A stretch of DNA of 8,566 nt, taken from a virus. Taxonomy: Duplodnaviria; Heunggongvirae; Uroviricota; Caudoviricetes. The position numbers and the translations under genes were made by a program. The stretch lies in the IMG/VR virus record IMGVR_UViG_2671180710_000015; one strand, given 5' to 3'. Below the pieces are notes generated by a model that did no database searches, had not been told where the DNA came from, and worked only from the letters and a program-made list of their open reading frames with translations. Below, piece after piece: positions 1-8,566 of the stretch (position 1 is its first letter; every line of letters begins with the position of its first letter).

Positions 1-927
1 TCAGCTTTTCGCCAGAACGGTGACGGCCTTATCGAGTTTTTGCCATCCGCAATAGGTGATTGCCCTGAACGCTGTAGCGTCATTCTGGAAAAGGCTAACC
101 GTCCCTGATTCGGTTTTTATTACCGCCTCATCAGTTGGGGTTATAACCGTGGCTTCAACGTTAATAATCAGCTTTTGAGCGTCTATCAGCATCATGCGAT
201 CCGCCTGTTCGCTCACAATTACCGGTATTCTCAAAAGCTCTATCTGCCAGAACTCAGCATCAGTAAGCTGTAAGGCGTTTTCTACGGGCAAGATTAGCGA
301 CGACGTGGCAAGCGTGTTACCGTTCGCTATGTGCTTTTTGAAAAGCTCTATGAAGTTTTCGGCCTCATCAGCACCATTAAGCACGCCCTCAGGGGATACG
401 CCCGCCACCTCCTGGTCACTGGAAAGAAATTTTTTATCTATTTCTTTCACCGATTCCGATGTGATCAAGTCTCTGATCGCTGAATTGGCACCAGGGGTGC
501 TAAATTTGATTAGCTCGTTATTCAGCATCACAATAGCGCCAAGTTTGCACAGTTTTAGCGCACTTTCGTTTACTTCTCCCTCTTTGACAGGGATTTCTTC
601 GGCTTCTTTAAGCCATTTACTACCCTTGCCTGATATTGACTGCAATTTTGCGCCAAACGGAAGATTCAGCGCGCTGCTGATTAGCTTGCCTGGTACAGAC
701 TGCGAAAAAATATACTCGCCAAGCTCTCTTACTATCGGCTCTGCCACCAGCGACGGCATATTATCCGTAGTCATTCCGGCAACAATGGATTTTTCAAGAA
801 ATTTCGATACTGCCGGATCATTTTTTTTCGTCATTTCAATTGCGTCTGCATGGCTGAATTTACACGATGTAAGCACGCTGGCGGCGCGAACTGCCGACAC
901 GCCTTTCATGTTTTTAGAAATCATCAT
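1..927 (-). CDS. Major capsid protein, HK97-fold (Phage_capsid-like), 308 aa
   Basis: ATG at 927-925 lies 6 nt after AGGAGG; the stop is at 3-1, the window edge. By-eye match to the Phage_capsid family pattern: KWLKEAEEIPVKEGEVNESALKLCKLGAIVMLNNELIKFS, then FLSSDQEVAGVSPEGVLNGA, then C-terminal LFQNDATAFRAITYCGW. No long N-terminal delta/scaffold-like segment is evident. Confidence 0.85.
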   Translation of the reverse strand: MMISKNMKGVSAVRAASVLTSCKFSHADAIEMTKKNDPAVSKFLEKSIVAGMTTDNMPSLVAEPIVRELGEYIFSQSVPGKLISSALNLPFGAKLQSISGKGSKWLKEAEEIPVKEGEVNESALKLCKLGAIVMLNNELIKFSTPGANSAIRDLITSESVKEIDKKFLSSDQEVAGVSPEGVLNGADEAENFIELFKKHIANGNTLATSSLILPVENALQLTDAEFWQIELLRIPVIVSEQADRMMLIDAQKLIINVEATVITPTDEAVIKTESGTVSLFQNDATAFRAITYCGWQKLDKAVTVLAKS

Positions 928-1075
928 CTTCTTCCTCCTGGTAACATGGGGTTAGGGTTTCGTGAAAATATGGCATCAGAACAGCGGCAGCCTGTAACCG
1001 TATTTCGGTTGGCTGCTGCTTGTCGTTCATGATTTCCGTGAGTACATCAATAGGGTCTGTGATGTATTCGCTCAT
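914..1075 (-). CDS. Hypothetical 53-aa protein with an acidic C-terminal tail (MSEYITDPIDVLTEIMNDKQQPTEIRLQAAAVLMPYFHETLTPCYQEEEDDDF)
   Basis: Below the ORF-track size cut-off and translated by hand. The ATG at 1075 is 11 nt after the terS stop, with GAGGT upstream. The stop TAA at 916-914 overlaps the capsid start by 14 nt, a spacing typical of translational coupling. Confidence 0.45.
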   Translation of the reverse strand: MSEYITDPIDVLTEIMNDKQQPTEIRLQAAAVLMPYFHETLTPCYQEEEDDDF

Positions 1076-1086
1076 AGTTCGCTACC

Positions 1087-1575
1087 TCAGTGTTTTAAGC
1101 CAGTTGGTGGCTTAGGGATGGGGAACCGATTTGAGGAGACATTAGCGGCATTGAGTTTTTTAACCTCTTTTTTCCCAATGCTGCCGATCTTGCGGTGGGT
1201 GAACTGGGCCAGCTTAAACGCGGCATCTAAAGCCAGTTTTGGATCTGTGTCCATGTTGTCAATCAGTATCCTGCCCATTGCTTTGATGGGGTCGGGTAGG
1301 CCGTTATCCATCATCTCAATGGTGTTAATTGATGCCCGTTCCGGTGTAACTTTTTCGGTAACTTTCTTTGTAACTTTTTTCGGTTTTGTAACCTGAAAAG
1401 TTACATCAGAAGTTACAGCCTTAAGATACTTTTTCACCTCCGGATCATTGGATAGCTGCCAGCCTTTAACCCTTGCAGTCTTTTCGCTGTATCCCGCATG
1501 TATCGCGGCTTCCGTTGGATTTGTGCCCTTTGATAACGCATCAGCAAACCGCTTTTTTTTGGTCGTTAATGCCAT
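1087..1575 (-). CDS. terS: Terminase small subunit (Terminase_2-like), 162 aa
   Basis: The internal Met of the 201-aa track ORF (ATG 1575-1573) is preceded by GAGG 7 nt upstream. The N-terminus MALTTKKKRFADALSKGTNPTEAAIHAGYSEKTARVKGWQLSNDPEVKKYL matches the characteristic TerS HTH signature (..F...Y...GN.T.AA..AGYS.KTA...G..L). The upstream 39 codons of the track ORF cross repeats and a GC hairpin and look non-coding. Confidence 0.85.
   Translation of the reverse strand: MALTTKKKRFADALSKGTNPTEAAIHAGYSEKTARVKGWQLSNDPEVKKYLKAVTSDVTFQVTKPKKVTKKVTEKVTPERASINTIEMMDNGLPDPIKAMGRILIDNMDTDPKLALDAAFKLAQFTHRKIGSIGKKEVKKLNAANVSSNRFPIPKPPTGLKH
1344..1416. repeat. Cluster of six GTAAC/GTTAC-core repeats inside terS (candidate TerS recognition / pac-type repeats)
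   Basis: GTAAC sits at 1346, 1358, 1370 and 1388, each followed by a T-run. The inverted form (AAAAGTTAC / GTTAC) sits at 1400 and 1412. GTGTAACTTTT at 1344-1354 is identical to the two copies upstream of terS. The repeats encode the VTKKVTEKVT repeat in TerS. Confidence 0.6.
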
Positions 1576-1597
1576 GCAAAAACCTCGTTTTGAGGGG

Positions 1598-1620
1598 GTG
1601 TAACTTTTCGTGTAACTTTT
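1598..1620. repeat. Tandem GTGTAACTTTT x2 (12-bp period), 23-45 nt upstream of the terS start codon
   Basis: Exact 11-mers at 1598-1608 and 1610-1620, with a third exact copy at 1344-1354. Confidence 0.75.
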
Positions 1621-1647
1621 TTGAAAAGCAAAATTTTCTATGAATGA

Positions 1648-1706
1648 GACGGGGGGCGGTGTCCAGGGCGATCGACTTTCCGGCCGGAACACTCCCCCCC
1701 CCTGTC
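1648..1706. other. GC-rich dyad-symmetric element between the 53-codon ORF and terS (candidate cosN-like / structured RNA element)
   Basis: GAC-GGGGGG-CG-GTGT (1648-1662) pairs with ACAC-T-CCCCCCCCC-T-GTC (1689-1706). The interior contains the palindromes CGATCG and TCCGGCCGGA. No U-tract follows on the minus strand, so it is not a canonical terminator. Confidence 0.4.
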
Positions 1707-1866
1707 ATTGCTCACCGAGTAACGAGATCAGGCCTTCAACTTCATCACTCAGCTTGTTTATTCGTGTCTCAAGCTCTGCGATCTTTTCCATTAATGGCGC
1801 TATCGTGTCTCTTGTTTCCTCGCCAATGGCTTTAATGATGCTTGCCTCGCGTTCTGTGATAGCCAT
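1705..1866 (-). CDS. Hypothetical 53-aa coiled-coil-like protein (MAITEREASIIKAIGEETRDTIAPLMEKIAELETRINKLSDEVEGLISLLGEQ)
   Basis: Hand-translated and below the ORF-track cut-off. The ATG at 1866 is preceded by GAGG 7 nt upstream and lies 2 nt after the stop of the upstream ORF. The sequence shows a heptad-like pattern. Confidence 0.5.
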   Translation of the reverse strand: MAITEREASIIKAIGEETRDTIAPLMEKIAELETRINKLSDEVEGLISLLGEQ

Positions 1867-1868
1867 TG

Positions 1869-2063
1869 TTATTCCTCACCTGTTGCAATGCCCAGGCGTT
1901 CGCGTAACAGCACGCGAGCAAGATGGCCTACTGTTGGCGTGGCGGCTCTGCCGTATATACCAGCTTCATTCATCCGGCGAATAACATCGAATTGAAGTTT
2001 TTTAAGCTCGTTTAGGATCTCGTGATCAATCATCACGGTAGCGCTTTGCTTTATCTGTTCCAC
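1869..2063 (-). CDS. Hypothetical 64-aa protein, possibly ribbon-helix-helix-like; first gene of the putative late operon
   Basis: GTG start at 2063-2061 with AGGAGG 7 nt upstream. The strand-helix-helix pattern is ATVMIDHEILNELKKL...PTVGHLARVLLRERL. The fold assignment is a by-eye inference only. Confidence 0.6.
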   Translation of the reverse strand: MEQIKQSATVMIDHEILNELKKLQFDVIRRMNEAGIYGRAATPTVGHLARVLLRERLGIATGEE

Positions 2064-2150
2064 TTTGTTTCCTCCTGATGCTTATCATCTCATAATCATT
2101 ATTTTCGATAGATTATAATCAATCAACCATTTTTAAAGATATGTGAGATC
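2064..2150 (-). promoter_or_regulatory. A+T-rich putative late-operon promoter region with a perfect TATAAT
   Basis: The minus-strand TATAAT (2117-2112) lies inside the palindrome GATTATAATC (2111-2120). The region sits immediately downstream of a strong terminator and upstream of the AGGAGG-GTG start. There is no good -35 hexamer, which suggests activator dependence. Confidence 0.4.
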
Positions 2151-2175
2151 GAAAAAAAGCCGGATTGCTCCGGCT
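2151..2175 (-). terminator. Rho-independent terminator ending the early/replication operon
   Basis: The minus-strand RNA reads AGCCGGA-GCAA-UCCGGCU followed by UUUUUU. This is a 7-bp GC-rich stem with a GNRA loop, 6 nt after the PerC-like stop codon. Confidence 0.85.
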
Positions 2176-2181
2176 ATGTGC

Positions 2182-2454
2182 TTAGCTGTCTGGGTAATTA
2201 CGCCATACTTCATCGCCTGCACCATCTATACCCATTTCAGCATAAGTGCGATCGACTGCCTTTCTCAGGTCTCCGAAGTTATCCGGCGGCTCCGGTGGCT
2301 TCTGTGCCTTCCTGGAACATTCCAGCCGTCGCATCGTAACCTGATACCGTTCCTTGTCTGTCTCCACCAGCTGCATGACTTCACCCCATCGCGCCGCCGC
2401 CCTCCGGTAAAATCCTTTCGCCTCGAGTTCCTCCGCTATGCGGTCATGTACCAT
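2182..2454 (-). CDS. PerC-family-like transcriptional activator, 90 aa
   Basis: Start chosen at the internal Met (ATG 2454-2452), 10 nt after the ssb stop and preceded by GGGGGTGAGG. The N-terminus MVHDRIAEELEAKGFYRRAAARWGEVM resembles the PerC/Pch signature (..AE.LE..G.YRRAA.RW..VM). The longer track ORF (to 2562) would overlap ssb by 98 nt. Confidence 0.6.
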   Translation of the reverse strand: MVHDRIAEELEAKGFYRRAAARWGEVMQLVETDKERYQVTMRRLECSRKAQKPPEPPDNFGDLRKAVDRTYAEMGIDGAGDEVWRNYPDS

Positions 2455-2464
2455 CCTCACCCCC

Positions 2465-2863
2465 TCAGAACGGAATACCATCACCGTAAGGGTCATCGCC
2501 TCCCGCTGGTGGCTGATTACCCTGTGTGCCTGTGGTTTTGCGTCTGTTCCCGCCTCGGGCACTGATTACGCTGTCTGCGATAACCTGCCAGCCCTGCCGC
2601 GTTTCGCCGTTCTGGCCTGTCCACTGGCTTACCTGCATCGTGCCGGATACGCTGGCAACATCGCCTTTTTGATGTTTAGCCAGGAAGTCGGCCTGTTTGC
2701 CAAATGCGATGACCGATAACCATAACGTCGCCTGTCCGTCCTGTGCCTGGCTGCATGGCAAAGATACCGCCATACGCGCCAGCGTCATCGGTGTGCCCTT
2801 GCTGGTCTGTTTTACCTGCGGGTCGTCCACCAGCCGCCCGTAAGCGGCTATCTGTGCCGTCAT
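2465..2863 (-). CDS. ssb: Single-stranded DNA-binding protein, 132 aa
   Basis: OB-fold pattern (GRLVDDPQVKQTSKGTPMTLARMAV...LWLSVIAFGKQADFLAKHQKGDVASVSGTMQVSQW). A Gly/Pro/Gln-rich linker precedes the canonical acidic tip ending DGIPF. The start overlaps the upstream stop as ATGA. Confidence 0.9.
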   Translation of the reverse strand: MTAQIAAYGRLVDDPQVKQTSKGTPMTLARMAVSLPCSQAQDGQATLWLSVIAFGKQADFLAKHQKGDVASVSGTMQVSQWTGQNGETRQGWQVIADSVISARGGNRRKTTGTQGNQPPAGGDDPYGDGIPF

Positions 2864-3111
2864 AATTCCACCTCTCCGGTTTTAACGTTGATGGTTGTTA
2901 CCTGTTCCGCTTCGGCAATCTCCCGTTCTGTCAGCGTGGCAAAGTTTGCCGCCGCCGTGGTCATGAATGCGCTTATCAGGTCGGGATGTTCCTTCGCGTA
3001 TCCTTCCCGCGTGTGGCGGTCTATCGTTCTGATTGCCACCTTTAAGGTGTGCTCAGTCATGTCTAACGCTTTATATTTTGGCTCTGTTCTGTCTCTGCGT
3101 TTTTGGGTCAT
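2860..3111 (-). CDS. Hypothetical protein, 83 aa (alternative start at 3141 gives 93 aa)
   Basis: The ATG at 3111 has GAGAGG about 9 nt upstream and leaves all origin iterons non-coding. The 3141 start would place two iterons inside the ORF. No recognisable family. Confidence 0.55.
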   Translation of the reverse strand: MTQKRRDRTEPKYKALDMTEHTLKVAIRTIDRHTREGYAKEHPDLISAFMTTAAANFATLTEREIAEAEQVTTINVKTGEVEL

Positions 3112-3123
3112 TTCTCGCAACCT

Positions 3124-3314
3124 CTCACTTTTTCGCCTCACTTTTTCAAGCGTCTCACTTCGTCGCAGTTGGGATTTTCGGTTTTTCTATGTGTGTGTTT
3201 CATAAGTATTTTTTTACCCCCTCACTTTTGAGGATGTATACAGGTCGAAAAGTGAGGGAGAGCGGGCTAATTTTGGCCCTCTTTCTATCCCCCTCGCTTT
3301 TGCTCCTCACTTTT
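3124..3314. repeat. Putative replication origin: seven (C)CTCACTTTT iterons in two clusters flanking an A+T-rich spacer
   Basis: CTCACTTTTT occurs at 3124 and 3137, CTCACTTC at 3154 and CTCACTTTTG at 3221. An inverted AAAAGTGAG lies at 3248-3256, CTCGCTTTTG at 3293 and CTCACTTTTA at 3306. The A+T-rich stretch gtgtgtgtttcataagtattttttta lies at about 3190-3217. The element is directly 3' of the helicase gene. Confidence 0.7.
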
Positions 3315-4710
3315 ATAGCGGCGCTACATCATCCCCATCGATACGAATAACCCCATCTTTTTCCAGCTTGTACAGCCAGCGCCGGAAGTTTTTCATTTCA
3401 TACCCCAGCTTTTTCATGTCATCACGTAACAGCGGGATCGTGCACTTGTCGCCGTTCTGTGTGCGTGAACGGATGCACCCCCATAGCGCGGTATGGTTTT
3501 CCGTCTTGTTCCCTGCCTCCTCGATGCGCTCCAGTTCAACAGGAGGGCGCGGATCATCCACCACCACCAGCGACGTGATTAATTCACCGTCAGCGTCGGT
3601 AAAAAGCTCCACCACGCGTAAGTCATATGCGGCTTCTTTGAGTTCCTCCGCGTCCTTCATTTTGGTGCATGAGATAACCAGCGCTTCGCTTCCTGCGTCC
3701 TCCCTGCGTATCCGGTATTCAGCATCCAGCGAAGCACGAAATGCACTGGAACCGCGCGCGCCTTTCGTCTCATCCTTGCCGGAATGGTGAACCACCAGCA
3801 CCGTGGCCCCTGTGCGTCGTTTAAGCTCGTCACAACCACGGATAAACGCCCCCATATCACGGGAATCATTTTCATCATTCCCACCAAAGCAACGCGCCAG
3901 AGTATCCAGAATAATCATGCGTACAGGTTTACCCGTTTCCCGCTCCACCTGACGGGCAGCGATAACCATTTCATCAACATCAAGCGGGGCAGCCGGAAAG
4001 ATGGGACGGTTTACCAGATACAGATTTTTCACCTGTTCACCGTGCACAACCTCCCAGGCTTTTACACGACGCGGAACGCCGATACCGCCTTCACCAACCA
4101 CATAGAGAACCGCACCATGCGCCACCCTGCGGCCTCCCCACTGGCGGCCCGTGGAAACGTGACACGCCCACGATCCGGCAAGGAATGATTTATAGGAACC
4201 GCTCGCCCCGTATATGCTGCAAAGCGATACCGCCGGAATAATTCCCTTCACCACGTAATCAAGCTGCGTGTCGTATCCGGCAGATCCCACGCTCATTGGT
4301 AGCTTGGTTTTTCGCTGGTGGCTCAGGCTTTCCCCGCGTTCCCATGTCTCCCTAAGCCGTGGAAGCTGGTCGCTCCATTCCTCCAGCAATTCGAAATTTT
4401 CAGAAAACAGGCGCGCTTCCTGGACTCCTGCGATTGCCAGTTTCGTGGCGATGGTTAACAACTGCACTTCGTCAATATTTCCGGCACGTATCACTTTCGC
4501 CCTGTATCGCCCATCATCCACAATCTGGAGGTTATCCAGTTCGCTTAACTGATAACGCCCCAGGTAAACGGGAGGGACTGGATCGCCTGCTTTTTTGGCC
4601 TGTGCAATGATGTAGTACTCTGCAAATGAGTGAGCATTATCACCCGCAAAAATAACCGCTTCGGTGTGTTTATCTTTCGGTAACAGTTTTACGTTCGGTG
4701 CCAGTTTCAT
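3313..4710 (-). CDS. Replication initiator/helicase, RepA-like RecA-fold ATPase (AAA_25-type), 465 aa
   Basis: The central domain has Walker A-like GASGSYKS, then GAVLYVVGEGG, Walker B MIILDTL and the sensor block VLVVHHSGKDETKGARGSSAF. The roughly 150-aa N-terminal domain has no recognised fold. The roughly 80-aa C-terminal domain (..FRRWLYKLEKDGVIRI) looks winged-helix-like. No primase motifs were seen. Confidence 0.85.
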   Translation of the reverse strand: MKLAPNVKLLPKDKHTEAVIFAGDNAHSFAEYYIIAQAKKAGDPVPPVYLGRYQLSELDNLQIVDDGRYRAKVIRAGNIDEVQLLTIATKLAIAGVQEARLFSENFELLEEWSDQLPRLRETWERGESLSHQRKTKLPMSVGSAGYDTQLDYVVKGIIPAVSLCSIYGASGSYKSFLAGSWACHVSTGRQWGGRRVAHGAVLYVVGEGGIGVPRRVKAWEVVHGEQVKNLYLVNRPIFPAAPLDVDEMVIAARQVERETGKPVRMIILDTLARCFGGNDENDSRDMGAFIRGCDELKRRTGATVLVVHHSGKDETKGARGSSAFRASLDAEYRIRREDAGSEALVISCTKMKDAEELKEAAYDLRVVELFTDADGELITSLVVVDDPRPPVELERIEEAGNKTENHTALWGCIRSRTQNGDKCTIPLLRDDMKKLGYEMKNFRRWLYKLEKDGVIRIDGDDVAPL

Positions 4711-5006
4711 TTTTTACCCCTGAATCCGTTAATCATGGTTTTCAGCTTCTGGATGTTTTCCCGTGCTCTGGCGTTGCTGGTGGGCACGTTATGCGGCGCG
4801 GTCTGTACCAGAGAAAAATCACGCCGGAACTGATAAACAGGCATCACGCAATCATATTCGTAACCTTCACGGCGGTAAGTTACGCACCGTCCCGCCACGC
4901 CCTTAATCATTACCGTGCCGCCGTACTGGTCGCGGTAAATATCACCGCGCGTAAATTTAGGGTGAGTGTTGCCACTGGCAGTTAAGCCAGAATATTTAAG
5001 TTTCAT
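4707..5006 (-). CDS. Hypothetical 99-aa protein, DUF4222-like by eye
   Basis: GGAG lies upstream of the ATG at 5006, and the stop overlaps the helicase start as ATGA. The segment GDIYRDQYGGTVMIKGVAGRCVTYRREGYEYDCVMPVYQFRRDF resembles the small DUF4222 prophage proteins. The family call has low confidence. Confidence 0.55.
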   Translation of the reverse strand: MKLKYSGLTASGNTHPKFTRGDIYRDQYGGTVMIKGVAGRCVTYRREGYEYDCVMPVYQFRRDFSLVQTAPHNVPTSNARARENIQKLKTMINGFRGKK

Positions 5007-5011
5007 TATTT

Positions 5012-5239
5012 TTATTCTCCGGTGTGGGGCGCTTTATTATTTTCGATAATATCCATTGCCTTATCCAGTTCATCAATAACAGGCGATAGTAATGTCTGAA
5101 TGGCTGCAAACATTAATGACGAAGATTCTTCGCCAGATTCCGGCACTTCAATTAATTTGCCTAACAACGCATTCATTTCCTTTGCGCGGATTAATGCGTT
5201 TTCAGAATGAATAAGAACATCAAAGGGTATTTTATGCAT
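5012..5239 (-). CDS. Hypothetical 75-aa acidic helical protein in a markedly A+T-rich gene
   Basis: The ATG overlaps the stop of the upstream gene (ATGCATAA) with a GGGGTGAG SD-like sequence upstream. A hand count gives 13 Asp/Glu against 6 Lys/Arg. There is no family match by eye. Confidence 0.55.
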   Translation of the reverse strand: MHKIPFDVLIHSENALIRAKEMNALLGKLIEVPESGEESSSLMFAAIQTLLSPVIDELDKAMDIIENNKAPHTGE

Positions 5240-5429
5240 GACTCACCCCCTGGCGAATACGGGCGGCGAATACAGCAACACAACCGGACGGGCAACGGCT
5301 ACGCGCTTCGCGTTCCGTCCAGGCGGTTACGTGGATGATTTGAGATTCTCCGGCACTCAGTGCCAGAAAACGCCACACAAAGGCCGTTTGTGTGTGTGCT
5401 AGTCGTGGGGTATGATTTACGGCAACCAT
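5232..5429 (-). CDS. Icd-like (host cell division inhibitor-like) small protein, 65 aa; first gene of the leftward operon
   Basis: GAGAGG lies 7 nt upstream of the ATG at 5429. The pattern FVWRFLAL...IIHVTAWTEREARS....VAVFAARI recalls the Icd-like proteins annotated in P4-like elements. The call is from memory, not from a search. Confidence 0.5.
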   Translation of the reverse strand: MVAVNHTPRLAHTQTAFVWRFLALSAGESQIIHVTAWTEREARSRCPSGCVAVFAARIRQGVSHA

Positions 5430-5501
5430 AAATTTACCTCTCTATAGTGTTTGTGGTTAGACGCCCTGCATGTGTTCCAGCACTGTGGGGCGTTGTTTTT
5501 T
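5373..5501. repeat. Copy A of a duplicated leader module (5' end of the Icd-like gene, its SD, and a terminator-like hairpin)
   Basis: It shares ordered blocks with 6081-6240 on the plus strand. The blocks are CGTTTGTGTGTGT (5385-5397), CCAT (5426-5429), TTACCTC (5434-5440), TGGTTAGA (5454-5461), and a GCCC..GGGC stem with a T-run (5462-5501). It also contains the hairpin CACACAAA-ggccg-TTTGTGTG (5374-5394). Confidence 0.7.
5462..5501 (+). terminator. Plus-strand terminator-like hairpin antisense to the leader of the leftward operon
   Basis: CGCCCUGCA (5462-5470) pairs with UGUGGGGCG (5484-5492); two of these pairs are G-U. TTGTTTTTT follows. No upstream plus-strand promoter could be identified by eye. 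Confidence 0.4.
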
Positions 5502-5502
5502 G

Positions 5503-5547
5503 GTGCAAGTCACCTTGAAATCTAGGTTACTTTTAGGTGACTTGCAC
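5503..5547. promoter_or_regulatory. Perfect 13-bp inverted repeat (candidate operator) in the divergent control region
   Basis: GTGCAAGTCACCT (5503-5515) and AGGTGACTTGCAC (5535-5547) are separated by 19 bp. The arms bracket the -10 and overlap the spacer and -35 of the proposed leftward promoter. Confidence 0.6.
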
Positions 5548-5572
5548 TTCAAGTCTTTTTTTATTTTTTTTT
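5524..5572 (-). promoter_or_regulatory. Proposed leftward operon promoter (P-left) with an UP-like A-tract
   Basis: On the minus strand, TTGAAG (5552-5547), a 17-nt spacer and TAACCT (5529-5524). It is preceded by A9-T-A7 (the complement of the T7-A-T9 tract at 5556-5572). Confidence 0.4.
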
Positions 5573-5583
5573 CTCCGTATACT
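5556..5583 (+). promoter_or_regulatory. Proposed rightward promoter for the first RHH-like gene
   Basis: TATACT at 5578-5583 lies 30 nt upstream of the ATG at 5614. The -35 position falls in the T7-A-T9 tract, so there is no consensus -35. Confidence 0.3.
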
Positions 5584-5613
5584 GAACACCACCTAACAGT
5601 AAGGAGAACAGAG

Positions 5614-5793
5614 ATGCCAACAGGTACAACCAACAACAAGTCACAACAAAAAACTGCTAGAGTACCTCTAGACGTTTTAAGCGAAATGAATTTGGTAAAA
5701 GAAGAAAACGAAACAGACGCACAATTTATCGTTACTGCCATGCGCGGCGAAATCAAACGCCGCCAGCGTCGCAAGGCCAAAGAATCAGAATAA
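5614..5793 (+). CDS. Ribbon-helix-helix-like small DNA-binding protein, 59 aa (candidate island repressor)
   Basis: AAGGAG (5601-5606) lies 7 nt before the ATG. The pattern ARVPLDVLSEMNLVKEENETDAQFIVTAMRGEIKRRQ fits a beta-strand, helix, helix (Arc/CopG-like) layout. The gene is divergent from the replication operon. Confidence 0.6.
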   Translation: MPTGTTNNKSQQKTARVPLDVLSEMNLVKEENETDAQFIVTAMRGEIKRRQRRKAKESE

Positions 5794-5802
5794 TCACTAT
5801 CA

Positions 5803-5829
5803 GCGCCGTGGTGTGAGGTACTACGGCGC
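5803..5829 (+). other. 10-bp stem hairpin 10 nt downstream of the RHH gene stop
   Basis: GCGCCGTGGT (5803-5812) pairs with ACTACGGCGC (5820-5829), including one G-U pair. The weak U-rich tail is ATTGCTTT. It could be an attenuator or an mRNA stabiliser. Confidence 0.4.
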
Positions 5830-5850
5830 ATTGCTTTACAGGGCAGTACC

Positions 5851-6078
5851 ATGACCAACAACACACTATCACCAATACAAGACACGCAAACGCAAGATGA
5901 TGAAATCATCCGGCAAAGGCAGTCAGAAGCCTGCGCCAGACTTGAGGAAGAACTAACCAGAACAAAAATACCACCACCAGCGCCGCGCTTAGTGCCACCA
6001 GAAAAATTTGCCCTTGAAGATTTTGTCGATAAATACCCACGGCGGCTTAAATCCGGCAAAAACCGACCGCCAGGATGA
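5851..6078 (+). CDS. Hypothetical 75-aa protein (weak call)
   Basis: The ORF is in the same frame as 5614-5793, separated only by one TAA and 19 sense codons. The SD is weak, rare codons are frequent and a Pro-rich centre (KIPPPAPRLVPPEK) is present. No family was recognised. Confidence 0.35.
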   Translation: MTNNTLSPIQDTQTQDDEIIRQRQSEACARLEEELTRTKIPPPAPRLVPPEKFALEDFVDKYPRRLKSGKNRPPG

Positions 6079-6080
6079 GT

Positions 6081-6240
6081 GCACAAAACCGAACTATGAA
6101 ACGGATTATTCCGTTTCCGGGGCGTTTGTGTGTGTATAAAGAGTAAGCTATGCTCTTTTATAGCCATAATCGTTACCTCAATTAATGGTTTGGTTAGAAG
6201 CCCGTTGGTGTTCATAGCGCCAGCGGGCTTTGCTTTTTGT
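6081..6240. repeat. Copy B of the duplicated leader module; on the plus strand it is a candidate sRNA / structured 3' UTR
   Basis: It carries the same ordered blocks as copy A: CGTTTGTGTGTGT (6123-6135), CCAT (6164-6167), TTACCTC (6173-6179) and TGGTTAGA (6191-6198), then a terminator. An extra perfect hairpin GAAACGGA-ttat-TCCGTTTC (6098-6117) is nested inside an outer CACAAAAC/GTTTGTG stem. Confidence 0.65.
6199..6240 (+). terminator. Rho-independent terminator, plus strand
   Basis: GCCCGUUGG (6200-6208) pairs with CCAGCGGGC (6220-6228), followed by UUUGCUUUUUGU. Confidence 0.6.
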
Positions 6241-6258
6241 GTTGATTGTGTGTAATAT
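6230..6258 (+). promoter_or_regulatory. Possible promoter of the second RHH-like gene
   Basis: TTGCTT (6230-6235), a 17-nt spacer and TAATAT (6253-6258). TGTAAT/ATTACA motifs lie at 6251-6256, 6277-6282 and 6288-6293; the last two flank the SD. Confidence 0.35.
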
Positions 6259-6297
6259 GTCACTACACATAAATACATTACATGAGGTGTAATTAAC

Positions 6298-6477
6298 ATG
6301 TCAATACACAAAAACGAAAGGCGTGGTAATCCTCCGTTCCAGTTCCGTTTAGATCCTGACTTACGGGAAAAGATGGAAAAGGCACAACAACATGACGGCG
6401 ATGATTCTCTTGCTGCCTGGATAAAGCGAATAATCCGCAAAGAATTACAGCAACGCGGCATAGAACCCAAAGGGTAA
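6298..6477 (+). CDS. Ribbon-helix-helix (Arc/CopG-like) small DNA-binding protein, 59 aa
   Basis: Hand-translated and below the track cut-off: MSIHKNERRGNPPFQFRLDPDLREKMEKAQQHDGDDSLAAWIKRIIRKELQQRGIEPKG. GAGGTG lies upstream of the ATG. It has the classic RHH layout of FQFRLDP strand, LREKMEKA helix and SLAAWIKRIIRKEL helix. Confidence 0.65.
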   Translation: MSIHKNERRGNPPFQFRLDPDLREKMEKAQQHDGDDSLAAWIKRIIRKELQQRGIEPKG

Positions 6478-6566
6478 TTACATTGCCCACCAGCCTGATA
6501 GCGGCTATCATTCCCGTGCTTATGTTTGGGATCACATAAGGCGCAGCAGGTTAATTGTTCACAAGG

Positions 6567-6592
6567 GCGTTCCGGCAACGGGGCGCTTTTTG
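6567..6592 (+). terminator. Rho-independent terminator (plus strand), convergent with the alpA 3' end
   Basis: GCGUUCCG-GCAA-CGGGGCGC is an 8-bp stem with two G-U pairs and a GNRA loop, followed by UUUUUGUU. On the minus strand no U-tract follows, so alpA read-through is possible. Confidence 0.6.
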
Positions 6593-6621
6593 TTATGTTC
6601 ATCGTGTTATGCCTCACACCA

Positions 6622-6828
6622 TTACGCAGCCGTTCCGCGTGCTTCCTGCTCACGTTCTTTCATCCATGCGATTACGTCTTCCTCATACCATCCGCGACGG
6701 CGTAAACCAACGCGAAAACCCTGCGGAAATTCTCCGGCGTTGATCATGCTTTGAAGCGTGCTGTCTGCCTTGATGTGGATAAGTTTTTTTACTTCCTGGC
6801 GAAAGATGACTTTTTTGATTGCTTCCAT
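6622..6828 (-). CDS. alpA: AlpA-family transcriptional regulator / excisionase-like HTH protein, 68 aa
   Basis: Typical Phage_AlpA pattern: FRQEVKKLIHIKADSTLQSMINAGEFPQGFRVGLRRRGWYEEDVIAWM. AAGGT lies 8 nt upstream of the ATG. Confidence 0.85.
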   Translation of the reverse strand: MEAIKKVIFRQEVKKLIHIKADSTLQSMINAGEFPQGFRVGLRRRGWYEEDVIAWMKEREQEARGTAA

Positions 6829-6846
6829 CGTGATTTACCTTGTGAA

Positions 6847-6921
6847 TCCGGTGTATTCCGGTGACAAATACGGTAAATCATCGGATATGGGTAAAAACAG
6901 TTCCCACCGTTTTTAAACGGT
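6847..6921. promoter_or_regulatory. Repeat motifs in the alpA upstream region
   Basis: The direct repeat TCCGGTG occurs at 6847-6853 and 6857-6863, one helical turn apart. The palindrome ACCGTTT-TT-AAACGGT lies at 6906-6921. No convincing sigma70 hexamers were found by eye. Confidence 0.3.
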
Positions 6922-6961
6922 TAGAATCGTTTTTTATGTTGGTGATTTGAAAGGGATTTAT

Positions 6962-6987
6962 AAAAAAAGCGGCATTTCTGCCGCTTT
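6962..6987 (-). terminator. Rho-independent terminator after the int-proximal 83-codon ORF
   Basis: The minus-strand RNA reads AAAGCGGCA-GAAA-UGCCGCUUU followed by UUUU, starting 8 nt after the TAA at 6998-6996. It insulates int/orf83 from alpA. Confidence 0.8.
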
Positions 6988-6995
6988 GAGGATTG

Positions 6996-7247
6996 TTACC
7001 GCCATTTTTTTGGCCTGCCTCCGGTCTTCATGGTTGCCGGACGAACTACCCTGTCGATACTTTCAGCCATATTCCTGGATGCCCCACGGGATACCAGGAA
7101 ATCTACTACCTGTTTTTTTGATGGGGCCGTCGTTCTGTCCTCCGGATCGTAGGTTGACCAAAATTCATGCTGAACCATCAGGGCCAGTTGCAGCCCGTCG
7201 CAATTGCATCTGAAATTTTTTTGCATCTTAACGGTTTCATGTTTCAC
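6996..7247 (-). CDS. Hypothetical 83-aa protein, possibly DNA-binding (basic C-terminus GGRPKKWR)
   Basis: The ORF lies between int and alpA and is followed by a strong terminator. The start is uncertain (GTG 7247 or ATG 7226) and both have weak SDs. The HTH-like segment is KKQVVDFLVSRGASRNMAESIDRVVRP. Confidence 0.5.
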   Translation of the reverse strand: MKHETVKMQKNFRCNCDGLQLALMVQHEFWSTYDPEDRTTAPSKKQVVDFLVSRGASRNMAESIDRVVRPATMKTGGRPKKWR

Positions 7248-7271
7248 GGCCTTGTCGTTAAATTTGATGCA

Positions 7272-7317
7272 ATTATACGACGGTTTTACATGGTTTTCGT
7301 AGTTTTTACTGGTTTTC
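7272..7317 (-). promoter_or_regulatory. Perfect -10 (TATAAT) preceded by four helically phased A-tract repeats
   Basis: The minus-strand TATAAT lies at 7277-7272. On the plus strand, GGTTTTA (7282), GGTTTTC (7292), GTTTTTA (7302) and GGTTTTC (7311) occur at 10, 10 and 9 bp spacing. There is no -35 consensus. Confidence 0.35.
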
Positions 7318-7324
7318 TGTACAG

Positions 7325-8566
7325 CTAAACGGCTCGGATACCCCTTTTACCACTGGCGAGGGTTACGCCCGTCGCCGCAGCCTCGACAAATTCGCCCCAC
7401 CAGCGCATAAGCACCACGCGTTTTTCTATGTAGTTGCTCCGGTTGTATGCCCGTCTCACTTCGTTAGTGTCGACGTGGGCAAGTGCGGCCTCGATTACGT
7501 CCGGCTCGAATCCTTCCTCGTTCGCTGCTGTACTGAATATGGCGCGTAATCCATGAGACACCAGCACGCCAGCGAACCCCATGCGTCGTAATGCTGCGTT
7601 TGCTGTCTGGCTGTTCATTGGCTGCCGTGGGTCTTTCAGACTCGGGAAAACATAATCGCGGTGGTGGCTGATTGGTTTCATGGCCTCCAGCACCGCCATA
7701 GCCTGACCGGAAAGTGGGATAACGTGATCCCTGCGCATCTTCATGCGTCCGGCGGGTATCGTCCAGCGTTGCGCGTCCAGGTCGATTTCATCCCACCGCG
7801 TTGATGACGCTTCGGCGGGACGGGTTACGGTCAGTAACTGCCATTCAATCAGTAATCTGGTCTGCCGTTCTGTTGCCGATACTGATAAAGCCTGCATAAG
7901 CTCCGGCAACTGTTCGGGGCGGATTGTTGGCATATGTTTTTTTACAGGGGAGGGGAACGCCTTACGCACATTCATAGCCGGATTGGCATCAATCAGCCCA
8001 CTGTTGGCGGCGTAATCCATTACCTCATTAACGCGCTGTAAAACCCGTTTGAGTGTTTCCAGGTTGCCGCGCTCCTTGATGGGGGTAAGCACCTCAACGA
8101 ACCTGCGAGCGGTCAGGGTGTCTATTGGGGTGTTGCCGATGAACGGGAATACATATTTATCCAGCGATCGCCAGATGTCTTTAATCGTGTTGGGGGCCAG
8201 ATTCTGGCTGATTTTCACCTGGTACCATGCCGCCGCCACATTTTCGAACGTGTTCCCTTGTCTTCGGGCCTCTGCCTCTCGTTTTTTCTTCTCATGGCCC
8301 TGCGGGTCAGTTCCGGCACTGATTAACGCTCTGTACTCGCTACGGCGTTTTCTGGCATCAGCCAGGGAAACATCATCAAGCGATCCAAAACTCAGCAATA
8401 TTCTTTTTTTGTCCGATGGCCGGTAGTAGGAAAATCGCCAGAGTTTTGATCCGGACGGTTTGACCAGGAGAAAAAGCCCTCCGCCGTCCTGTAGGGTGTA
8501 TTCCTTTTCCGCTGGTCTGGCTGCTTTGATCTGCACCGTGGTTAATGGGGGTGTTTTTCTCGCCAT
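7325..8566 (-). CDS. int: Tyrosine recombinase/integrase, P4-type (DUF4102 N-terminal arm-binding domain plus catalytic domain), 413 aa
   Basis: The N-terminus LTTVQIKAARPAEKEYTLQDGGGLFLLVKPSGSKLWRFSYY is the classic P4-like integrase signature. Catalytic motifs are present: TVTRPAEA (Arg), HGLRAIF (His-x-x-Arg) and AHVDTNEVRRAYNRSNY (His and Tyr). The ATG is at the window edge. Confidence 0.95.
   Translation of the reverse strand: MARKTPPLTTVQIKAARPAEKEYTLQDGGGLFLLVKPSGSKLWRFSYYRPSDKKRILLSFGSLDDVSLADARKRRSEYRALISAGTDPQGHEKKKREAEARRQGNTFENVAAAWYQVKISQNLAPNTIKDIWRSLDKYVFPFIGNTPIDTLTARRFVEVLTPIKERGNLETLKRVLQRVNEVMDYAANSGLIDANPAMNVRKAFPSPVKKHMPTIRPEQLPELMQALSVSATERQTRLLIEWQLLTVTRPAEASSTRWDEIDLDAQRWTIPAGRMKMRRDHVIPLSGQAMAVLEAMKPISHHRDYVFPSLKDPRQPMNSQTANAALRRMGFAGVLVSHGLRAIFSTAANEEGFEPDVIEAALAHVDTNEVRRAYNRSNYIEKRVVLMRWWGEFVEAAATGVTLASGKRGIRAV

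Follow-up and report, generated by a model that had tools for sequence, protein, structure and literature searches.

Which kind of mobile element carries a gene for the small terminase subunit (TerS) and a gene for an HK97-fold coat protein, and none of the other genes of a phage head? This question is raised by an 8,566-nucleotide (nt) stretch of DNA, the IMG/VR record IMGVR_UViG_2671180710_000015 (Caudoviricetes), the whole of which is referred to as the window hereafter. An earlier note, made from the letters of the window, had offered two explanations: that the remaining head genes lie beyond position 1, or that a satellite supplies only the shell and the packaging-specificity subunit and borrows the portal, the protease and the large terminase subunit (TerL) from a helper phage. 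Our answer is that the window is very probably a nearly whole classical Gram-negative phage-inducible chromosomal island (PICI) of the EcCI11128 family, together with a reading of its packaging whose parts are graded separately below.

Identity and insertion site of the island

Open reading frames (ORFs) taken as genes were scanned against Pfam, PHROGs and NCBIfam, and every part named in the earlier note was found: the integrase, alpA (with a weaker match), a RepA-like helicase with iterons, ssb, a PerC-like regulator, terS and the capsid gene. The order of terS, a 53-codon ORF and the capsid gene was likewise real, as judged from the ORF coordinates and the profile matches, and no tail, lysis, TerL, portal or protease family was matched by any scanned ORF. 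The PICI model of SatelliteFinder (de Sousa et al.; PMC10085698) has five core components, namely integrase, AlpA, replicase, a 'capsid morphogenesis' homologue (more frequent in Proteobacteria) and TerS, and treats tail, holin, portal and connector genes as forbidden. The same scans found all five core components in the window and none of the forbidden ones, and the att-flanked unit described below falls in the PICI size range of 8–15 kb. The supposition that the element is an unusual intermediate between PICI or P4 elements and capsid-forming PICIs (cf-PICIs) did not hold: the capsid homologue and TerS are two of the five core components, their occurrence with no other virion genes is normal for such islands, and the family was already listed.

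The boundaries of the island were observed directly. The window's own 9.2-kb assembly contig (L002), which encodes the exact capsid protein, runs from the capsid stop codon through 268 nt to the att core TTTTAGTTATACGTTTAGTTATACGG and on into yejO, narP, ccmH and dsbE. Because the contig passes from the capsid gene through the att core into chromosomal genes, there are no head genes beyond position 1, and the first of the two explanations is refuted. In Escherichia coli CD45, 97-3250 and O111:H- 11128, the island sits between yejO and tRNA-Pro/yejM, with yejM and tRNA-Pro on the integrase side, and the att core occurs at both island ends, the two copies being separated by 9,089 bp in CD45 and by 9,291 bp in 11128. 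The capsid gene is likewise the last gene in the CD45, 97-3250, O111 11128 and O157 Z1766 islands. The island is approximately 8.9–9.3 kb in size and is integrated in E. coli at the intergenic core, with proL/yejM on one side and yejO/narP on the other. The att repeats expected near int were thus present, but not at the 3' end of a tRNA gene as had been suggested; the core lies outside the tRNA, approximately 130 nt from the tRNA-Pro gene. Chromosomal genes, instead of the tail and lysis modules of an ordinary prophage, flank the island.

Four PICIs, EcCI11128 (AP010960.1, 2855234–2864550; 9.3 kb), EcCI11368.1, EcCIATCC25922 and EcCIED1a.1, have been reported at 'yejM-luxR' with the att core TTTGTAGTTATACGTTTGTAGTTATACGG (Fillol-Salom et al. 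2018, Table S1; PMC6092414). The core on the window's contig is near-identical to this published core, and the 11128 locus is colinear with the window, with an identical gene order. The island of the window shares the att core, insertion site, gene order, RepA-type helicase and DUF4222 gene with EcCI11128, EcCI11368.1 and EcCIED1a.1. It differs from EcCI11128 in having ssb and perC, as CD45 and EcCICFT073 do, and in the opposite-strand block between alpA and icd. The best complete-genome match covered 87% of the window at 92% identity, and the window is a mosaic variant of the EcCI11128 family. As a kind, the element was already known, having been catalogued in 2018 and being routinely detected by SatelliteFinder.

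Spread and selection of the terminal cassette

The three genes that end the island, terS (1087..1575), the gene for a 53-amino-acid (aa) protein (914..1075) and the capsid gene (1..927), all on the minus strand, form a cassette that was found at 97% identity or more in 220 of 5,426 complete E. coli genomes, mostly of Shiga-toxin producers. The cassette of the window is 99.8% identical to that of O111 and related genomes. At 97% identity it also ends a second PICI backbone, with another integrase and a D5-type primase, located at cspD-clpS in O157:H7 Z1766 (L017, 9501–17909); cspD-clpS is the att site of EcCIIHE3034 and EcCI18098. Since it sits at the right end of this different backbone as well, the cassette behaves as an exchangeable module that moves between backbones.

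All three cassette genes are under purifying selection, the ratios of nonsynonymous to synonymous divergence (dN/dS) being 0.10 for terS, 0.22 for the 53-aa gene (at dS 0.63) and 0.14 for the capsid gene.

Two further contigs were observed alongside these islands. An IMG/VR contig of 8050 nt (L026) joins a 5' piece of int to the 3' portion of the helicase gene and then carries the cassette, another int-alpA pair and the 3' end of a further capsid gene; with such rearranged or tandem pieces, tandem or degenerate island copies exist. On a more distant contig (L015, 1003–2561), a 162-aa ORF with no Pfam match directly precedes a 326-aa capsid homologue (26% identical), with no small ORF between them, and a DUF3987 primase-type gene lies farther along. 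This contig may represent a more distant island of the same design.

The small terminase subunit and a candidate helper-type cos element

The 162-aa TerS (Terminase_2, E 9e-11; phrog_641, E 1e-43) is 47% identical overall to the TerS of Shiga toxin (Stx) phages (E 2e-43). The identity falls from 66% in the helix-turn-helix (HTH) region to 13.5% over the linker and rises again to 59% across the C-terminal half. Upstream of terS, at a distance of 59–125 nt, lies a candidate cos element of the helper type (1634..1700, minus strand), a 65-nt block that shares 77–79% identity with the sequence separating the HNH gene from terS in lambdoid Stx phages. The block is common to the phages Lys8385Vzw and PPompW and to O157 and O145 prophages, always between an HNH gene and terS, and in the window it contains the 10-nt cohesive-end sequence CGCCCCCCGT (1649–1658), which is identical to that of the O157 and O145 prophages. 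PhageTerm typing has assigned Lys8385Vzw to the cos phages that have 3' cohesive ends, the cos sequence CGCCCCCCCT lying at the genome end (Zhang et al. 2021; PMC7946995), and this sequence falls within the shared block. No HNH gene of the island's own was found among the scanned ORFs of the window.

Downstream of the block, seven AAGTTAC repeats were found at 1346..1618 (minus strand), two before the start of terS and five inside it, and they are candidate cosB-like sites for the island TerS. This heptamer occurs eight times in the window, compared with 0.87 expected, and seven of the eight lie in 1346–1618, with 12-nt spacing and in direct and inverted sets. The repeats are kept in a diverged relative (L011), whose synonymous divergence from the window is 0.4–0.7, and the phages have five GTTAAC hexamers before terS at the corresponding place. 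Three of the in-gene repeats (1346–1376, minus strand), 12 nt apart, encode KKVT-KKVT-EKVT in the poorly conserved linker of TerS, a stretch in which the residues appear to be set by the DNA sites.

Because the island conserves, at the same position relative to terS, the block that holds the cohesive-end sequence in a PhageTerm-typed cos phage, the packaging of the island is probably of the cos type, with a cosN shared with the phages and island-specific TerS sites. The island TerS keeps a helper-like C-terminal half, which we assume to contact TerL, together with a diverged linker and a partly diverged HTH region. It would bind AAGTTAC rather than the phage GTTAAC and would bring the helper TerL and HNH nuclease to island DNA. 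Such a logic would follow that established by experiment for EcCICFT073, with its shared cosN and different cosB, except that specificity would come from the island's own TerS instead of Rpp.

An alternative is headful (pac) packaging, in which the island TerS recognises a pac site, formed by the AAGTTAC repeats in terS, and the helper TerL packages the DNA as in pac-type Staphylococcus aureus pathogenicity islands (SaPIs), the 65-nt block being unrelated to cutting. Two observations speak against the cos assignment and in favour of this alternative or of another role for the block: Terminase_2 TerS proteins occur in headful phages too, where they and pac sites within terS are typical, and the block, with its G7...C6-7 arms, could serve as an RNA or DNA hairpin. 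The repeats indeed lie mostly inside terS, and TerS-encoding PICIs have been described as pac type (PMC6092414). By contrast, the nearest phage TerS comes from the phage typed as cos with 3' ends (PMC7946995), the TerL of that phage adjoins an HNH nuclease, an arrangement that Kala et al. (2014), as cited in PMC12315714, regard as a hallmark of HK97-type cos packaging, and the island keeps exactly the cohesive-end block at the same position relative to terS. We therefore consider headful packaging unlikely.

Stx-type lambdoid prophages as putative helpers

The closest E. coli phage relatives of both TerS and the capsid protein are the same lambdoid Stx/PPompW prophages. Their module runs HNH, cos, terS, terL, a protease-scaffold-coat fusion gene, a small ORF and portal, followed by tail genes. 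The TerL protein has TerL_ATPase (PF03354) and TerL_nuclease domains, with the HNH gene adjoining. The 645-aa fusion protein has an N-terminal Peptidase_S78 protease domain and a C-terminal coat domain and corresponds to the Gifsy-2-type fused protease and coat gene of Effantin et al. (2010), as cited in PMC12315714. Compared with the modules of BP-4795, 2851 and Lys8385Vzw, the island shares a TerS of 47% identity, the cos block, a homologous coat domain, and PerC and YlcI/YnfO genes, whereas it has the 53-aa gene at the place of terL, only the coat part of the fusion, and other TerS-site repeats.

Helper-type HNH-cos-terS regions were found in 1,246 of the 5,426 complete E. coli genomes, with up to eight copies each, and such a region co-resides with the island in at least strain UTAK-13. 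Additional matching places were seen in 22 of 24 sampled island-bearing genomes, which gives a rough indication. The YlcI/YnfO genes also stand directly upstream of HNH-cos-terS in two Stx-type prophages (L012, 5495–6115; L013, 5495–5695), as does PerC in the former. Since the prophages carry these genes there, the perC and ylcI-like genes of the island are shared with the putative helpers rather than being P4-like.

Taken together, the architecture points to Stx-type lambdoid prophages as the helpers. The coat homologue of a PICI also appears to match the head type of its helper, because EcCICFT073, with the helpers lambda and phi80, carries a lambda E-type coat gene followed by a gpD-type gene; for the island of the window, such a match would be expected by the same logic.

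The capsid homologue

The last gene of the island encodes a 308-aa homologue of HK97-fold coat proteins (PF05065, E 6e-7, above the cut-off). No match was found by phmmer among the PDB sequences, and the fold was therefore established from an AlphaFold model and Foldseek. The model, built with 15 family members, had a predicted local distance difference test (pLDDT) score of 79 and a predicted template modelling (pTM) score of 0.80, and its best PDB matches were the HK97-fold coat proteins of Bxb1, of 80alpha in SaPI1 capsids and of the phi12 CP/Ccm procapsid (7rwz), with E-values down to 2e-10. The HK97-fold call made from the sequence thus stood.

The word-indexed protein search returned 3–11 relatives per query, and the breadth of the family was taken from an exhaustive HMMER search, whose matches come without genomic context. 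Two scans of species-representative genomes for capsid relatives found none. In the exhaustive search, the family was the short form, of 307–332 aa, and distant relatives of 440–740 aa had extra N-terminal delta or protease parts, in agreement with the earlier remark that the protein lacks a long N-terminal delta or scaffold region. In the model, the spine helix begins at residue 145, with short helices ahead of it; by HK97 gp5 numbering, about 45 residues precede the N-arm in the island protein. The delta domains of Ccm and of the phi12 coat protein have 87 and 128 residues, respectively (PMC8569155).

The coat protein aligns with residues 291–625 of the 645-aa Stx-phage fusion at 23% identity (E 1e-20). 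Similar or slightly higher identities (25–27%) were obtained for matches in Burkholderia, Ralstonia, Salmonella FSL SP-016 and Moraxella phages. Of the three parts of the fusion, the island protein represents the coat; the protease is missing, as is most of the scaffold. As the element supplies only TerS and a coat-protein homologue, the rest of the head must be borrowed. The second explanation of the earlier note was therefore right as to gene content.

The 53-aa protein

The ORF at 914..1075 (minus strand), which overlaps the start of the capsid gene by 11–14 nt, is a real gene, with 53 codons in all relatives. Its product, which AlphaFold2 models as a helix-turn-helix hairpin ending in an acidic tail, is similar to the middle helical stretch of TerS and matches the profile of the TerS family phrog_641 at positions 89–126 (E 8e-7). 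Non-significant matches were to the same protein class: a search of PDB profiles (E 0.24) aligned residues 11–31 with residues 81–101 of NV1 TerS, and Foldseek ranked PaP3 TerS first among the PDB matches of the model (E 2.4). A derivation of the gene as a remnant of terL was rejected, as tblastn against the helper head module gave nothing. The protein is hypothesised to be a TerS mimic, analogous to Ppi or Rpp.

Possible roles of the cassette in packaging and interference

By analogy with EcCICFT073, a helper phage would turn on AlpA, and the island would excise by means of its integrase and replicate from the iteron origin using the RepA-type helicase and SSB. After recruitment of the helper TerL as described above, the coat homologue would co-assemble with the helper coat protein and alter the capsids, as Ccm of SaPIbov5 does, and the 53-aa hairpin would interfere with, or adapt, the helper TerS. 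Redirection of capsid size by co-assembly is suggested tentatively, by analogy: Ccm occupies pentons and makes small capsids (PMC8569155), and PmCI172 makes small capsids and carries a coat homologue (PMC6092414). An action of the 53-aa protein on the helper TerS is a somewhat weaker suggestion, and we regard it as doubtful.

A number of points count against these roles. When c1499, which encodes the EcCICFT073 capsid homologue, was deleted, transfer and interference were both unaffected, and EcCICFT073 uses full-size capsids (PMC6092414), so a size-redirecting role is not to be assumed for the capsid homologues of E. coli PICIs. According to our own estimate from volume scaling, a 9-kb unit fits no T=3 or T=4 derivative of a 50–57-kb T=7 head neatly; packaging of multimers or another capsid size is possible. 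The TerS likeness of the 53-aa protein comes from one PHROG profile match, and against the island's own TerS, BLASTP gave no alignment and hhalign an E-value of 0.17. The TerS-encoding E. coli PICIs EcCIIHE3034 and EcCI18098 were transferred at only 10–110 transductants/ml (PMC6092414). Apart from the 2018 catalogue, searches of the literature turned up no experimental work on islands of the EcCI11128 type or on the capsid homologue of E. coli PICIs.

A second possibility is that the capsid homologue, and perhaps the 53-aa protein too, acts only in anti-phage interference or has no role in transfer; it would poison the assembly of helper heads or their packaging, so that the host population is protected and no satellite-specific capsids are made. 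Classical PICIs do interfere strongly with their helpers (PMC6092414, PMC6739421), c1499 is not needed for transfer, and a coat protein without protease and scaffold could be a dominant-negative subunit in a helper with a tripartite coat gene. The c1499 deletion, however, left interference intact as well, and the three cassette genes are strictly linked, which suggests a joint packaging role. We judge a purely interfering or dispensable function to be rather improbable.

More ambitiously, the cassette could be a 'hijack kit', complete in itself and directed at HK97-type cos lambdoid phages that have tripartite coat genes. It would comprise a TerS for its own cosB beside a helper-type cosN, a mimic that disables or rewires the helper TerS, and a scaffold-less coat protein that forms the pentons or the entire shell of satellite-sized capsids. 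We consider this quite unlikely; if it were true, the shell would be partly encoded by a satellite lacking portal, protease and TerL, which would be a real functional intermediate between PICIs and cf-PICIs. Less probable still is a minimal capsid-forming satellite, in which the island coat protein builds the whole shell or all pentons of satellite-sized capsids with the portal, protease and scaffold of the helper and which would be a true PICI/cf-PICI intermediate. In favour of this reading, the coat homologue has the length of a complete mature HK97-fold protein, its fold is predicted with confidence, purifying selection acts on its gene, which is kept with terS as one cassette in different backbones, and Ccm occupies all pentons in SaPIbov5 capsids (PMC8569155). 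Nevertheless, the island has no protease, portal or connector, only a short helical N-terminal extension takes the place of a delta or scaffold domain, Ccm is unable to form capsids by itself (PMC8569155), the capsid homologue of EcCICFT073 is dispensable for transfer (PMC6092414), and an identity of 23% to the putative helper coat makes co-assembly itself uncertain.

Comparison with other satellites

Among experimentally studied PICIs, the prototype EcCICFT073 resembles the window in int, alpA, the opposite-strand YlcI/YnfO genes, the Icd-like and DUF4222 genes, a replicase, an origin, SSB, PerC and a coat homologue. Because this backbone has the same order, what had been described as an unusual mix of P4-like and PICI-like parts (Icd-like, PerC, SSB, DUF4222 and opposite-strand YlcI/YnfO genes) turned out to be the normal backbone of an E. 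coli PICI. EcCICFT073 differs in having a D5-type primase, whereas the window has the RepA helicase. Its coat homologue (L016, 8669–10071) is of the lambda E type (PF03864), is followed by a gpD-type decoration gene and has no sequence relation to the PF05065 protein of the window. As is proposed for the island of the window, it carries the helper's cosN with a different cosB (PMC6092414). It lacks TerS, redirecting the helper TerS through Rpp instead (PMC6739421).

The cos-type staphylococcal PICI SaPIbov5 has a comparable protein: Ccm is likewise encoded by the satellite, has the HK97 fold and is homologous to the helper coat protein (approximately 24% identity). Portal, protease and TerL are absent from SaPIbov5 too, and the helper is an HNH-dependent cos phage (PMC8569155). 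The differences are that Ccm has an 87-residue cleaved delta domain in place of the short helical N-terminal extension, that SaPIbov5 has no TerS, and that the function of Ccm has been shown by cryo-electron microscopy, whereas the window protein is known from its fold and homology.

Elements of the EcCIEDL933 type (cf-PICIs) share with the window an int/alpA/rep backbone, an HK97-fold coat protein and a TerS of their own, and, as predicted for the window, the HNH-type cos logic (preprint 10.1101/2022.09.08.507074). In addition, cf-PICIs have genes for HNH, TerL, portal, protease and head-tail connectors; no such gene was found among the scanned ORFs of the window. In published trees, the capsid and TerS genes of PICIs and cf-PICIs fall in almost perfectly separate clades (PMC10085698).

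Likeness to P4 was limited to the P4-family integrase and the AlpA-like and Icd-like genes, and the P4-like satellite markers Sid, Psu, Delta, Ash/epsilon and the alpha primase-helicase had no match in the scanned ORFs. That the window is a decayed prophage remnant or a P4-type satellite, as its P4-family integrase and Icd-like gene and the RefSeq labelling of its genes simply as phage genes might suggest, is extremely improbable given the discrete att-flanked unit of constant architecture in hundreds of genomes, the low dN/dS in all three cassette genes, the lack of any Sid, Psu, Delta or alpha-primase match in the scanned ORFs, and a backbone colinear with the experimentally mobilised EcCICFT073.

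Remaining genes of the island

The main coding strand is the minus strand, and the element reads from 8566 to 1, with one opposite-strand block at 5614–6477. The island opens with a 413-aa P4-family tyrosine integrase (7325..8566, minus strand), which matched Arm-DNA-bind_3, Phage_int_M and Phage_integrase (E 5e-23 to 8e-30) and phrog_1 (E 4e-72). It is followed on the same strand by an 83-aa ORF (6996..7247), a hypothetical protein in relatives with no family match, after which comes a terminator-like hairpin (6987–6966). The next gene (6622..6828, minus strand) encodes a 68-aa AlpA-like HTH regulator or excisionase that matched phrog_66, 'excisionase and transcriptional regulator' (E 1.4e-7), and stands at the position of alpA in EcCICFT073; the Pfam Phage_AlpA match (E 0.003) was under the curated cut-off, which makes this call weaker.

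The opposite-strand block (5614..6477) is a mosaic region that differs from the closest relatives, as seen from coverage gaps. On the plus strand, it holds two YlcI/YnfO-like ribbon-helix-helix genes (5614–5793 and 6298–6477; NF041551, E 4.7e-17 and 0.003; phrog_228 Arc-like repressor, E 4e-6) and, between them, a 75-aa ORF (5851–6078) to which no family was given. A 398-aa minus-strand ORF (5457–6653) was rejected as a gene, having no family match and being overlain by three plus-strand ORFs, two of them with YlcI/YnfO matches; related islands differ most from the window in this stretch. Between the icd-like gene and the plus-strand YlcI/YnfO-like gene, which diverge, GTGCAAGTCACCT (5503–5515) and AGGTGACTTGCAC (5535–5547) form a 13-nt inverted repeat without mismatch that may be an operator or a terminator.

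Back on the minus strand, a 65-aa Icd-like protein (5232..5429; NF033153, E 5.5e-18) is followed by a 75-aa ORF (5012–5239; phrog_2196, E 3.2e-9, function not assigned) and a 99-aa DUF4222 protein (4707–5006; Pfam match), a pair that precedes the replicase in EcCI11128 and EcCICFT073 too. The replicase is a 465-aa RepA-family (AAA_25) helicase or initiator (3313..4710, minus strand; PF13481, E 1e-42; phrog_2850, E 1.6e-227). Immediately 3' of its gene lies a putative replication origin (3123..3314, minus strand), in which six AAAAGTGAGG iterons surround an A+T-rich stretch. The six copies compare with 0.77 expected in the whole window, none of 200 shuffles reached six, all lie within 190 bp 3' of the helicase stop codon, and two of them form a palindrome at 3219–3258. 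Three further minus-strand genes follow: a phrog_1231 protein (2860..3111; E 5e-53, aligned from residue 11), whose start is probably the ATG at 3111; a 132-aa SSB (2465..2863; PF00436, E 1.6e-16; phrog_44, E 2.5e-40); and a PerC-family regulator (2182..2454; PF06069, E 1.4e-42), whose Pfam domain begins at residue 37 of the long ORF.

The packaging block opens with two small minus-strand ORFs of 64 and 53 aa (1869–2063 and 1705–1866, respectively), which have no family match and are conserved in relatives. A terminator-like hairpin directly after perC (2175–2158) and a promoter-like site before the 64-aa ORF (2126–2098) suggest that these two ORFs, the candidate cos element, terS, the 53-aa gene and the capsid gene are transcribed as a unit of their own. 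Rfam gave no RNA family for the window at E-values up to 0.1, and the window contains no tRNA.

Significance

As a kind of element, the island is nothing new, being another mosaic member of a PICI family on record since 2018. We found no description of its candidate cos site, its own AAGTTAC repeats, the TerS-like 53-aa protein or the correspondence of its capsid protein to the coat part of the phage fusion, and the functions proposed for them are predictions from sequence. The value of the locus lies in the capsid homologue, which is a core component of PICIs in Proteobacteria, yet whose sole deletion in E. coli, that of c1499, had no phenotype. The cassette provides a clean test case, being compact, consisting of three co-conserved genes, widespread in Shiga-toxin-producing E. 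coli and accompanied by specific candidate helpers. Prophages with the order HNH, cos, terS, terL and a tripartite coat gene are common in these strains and constitute abundant candidates. If such islands are mobilised by Stx phages, or interfere with them, they would have a bearing on the spread and yield of Shiga-toxin phages.

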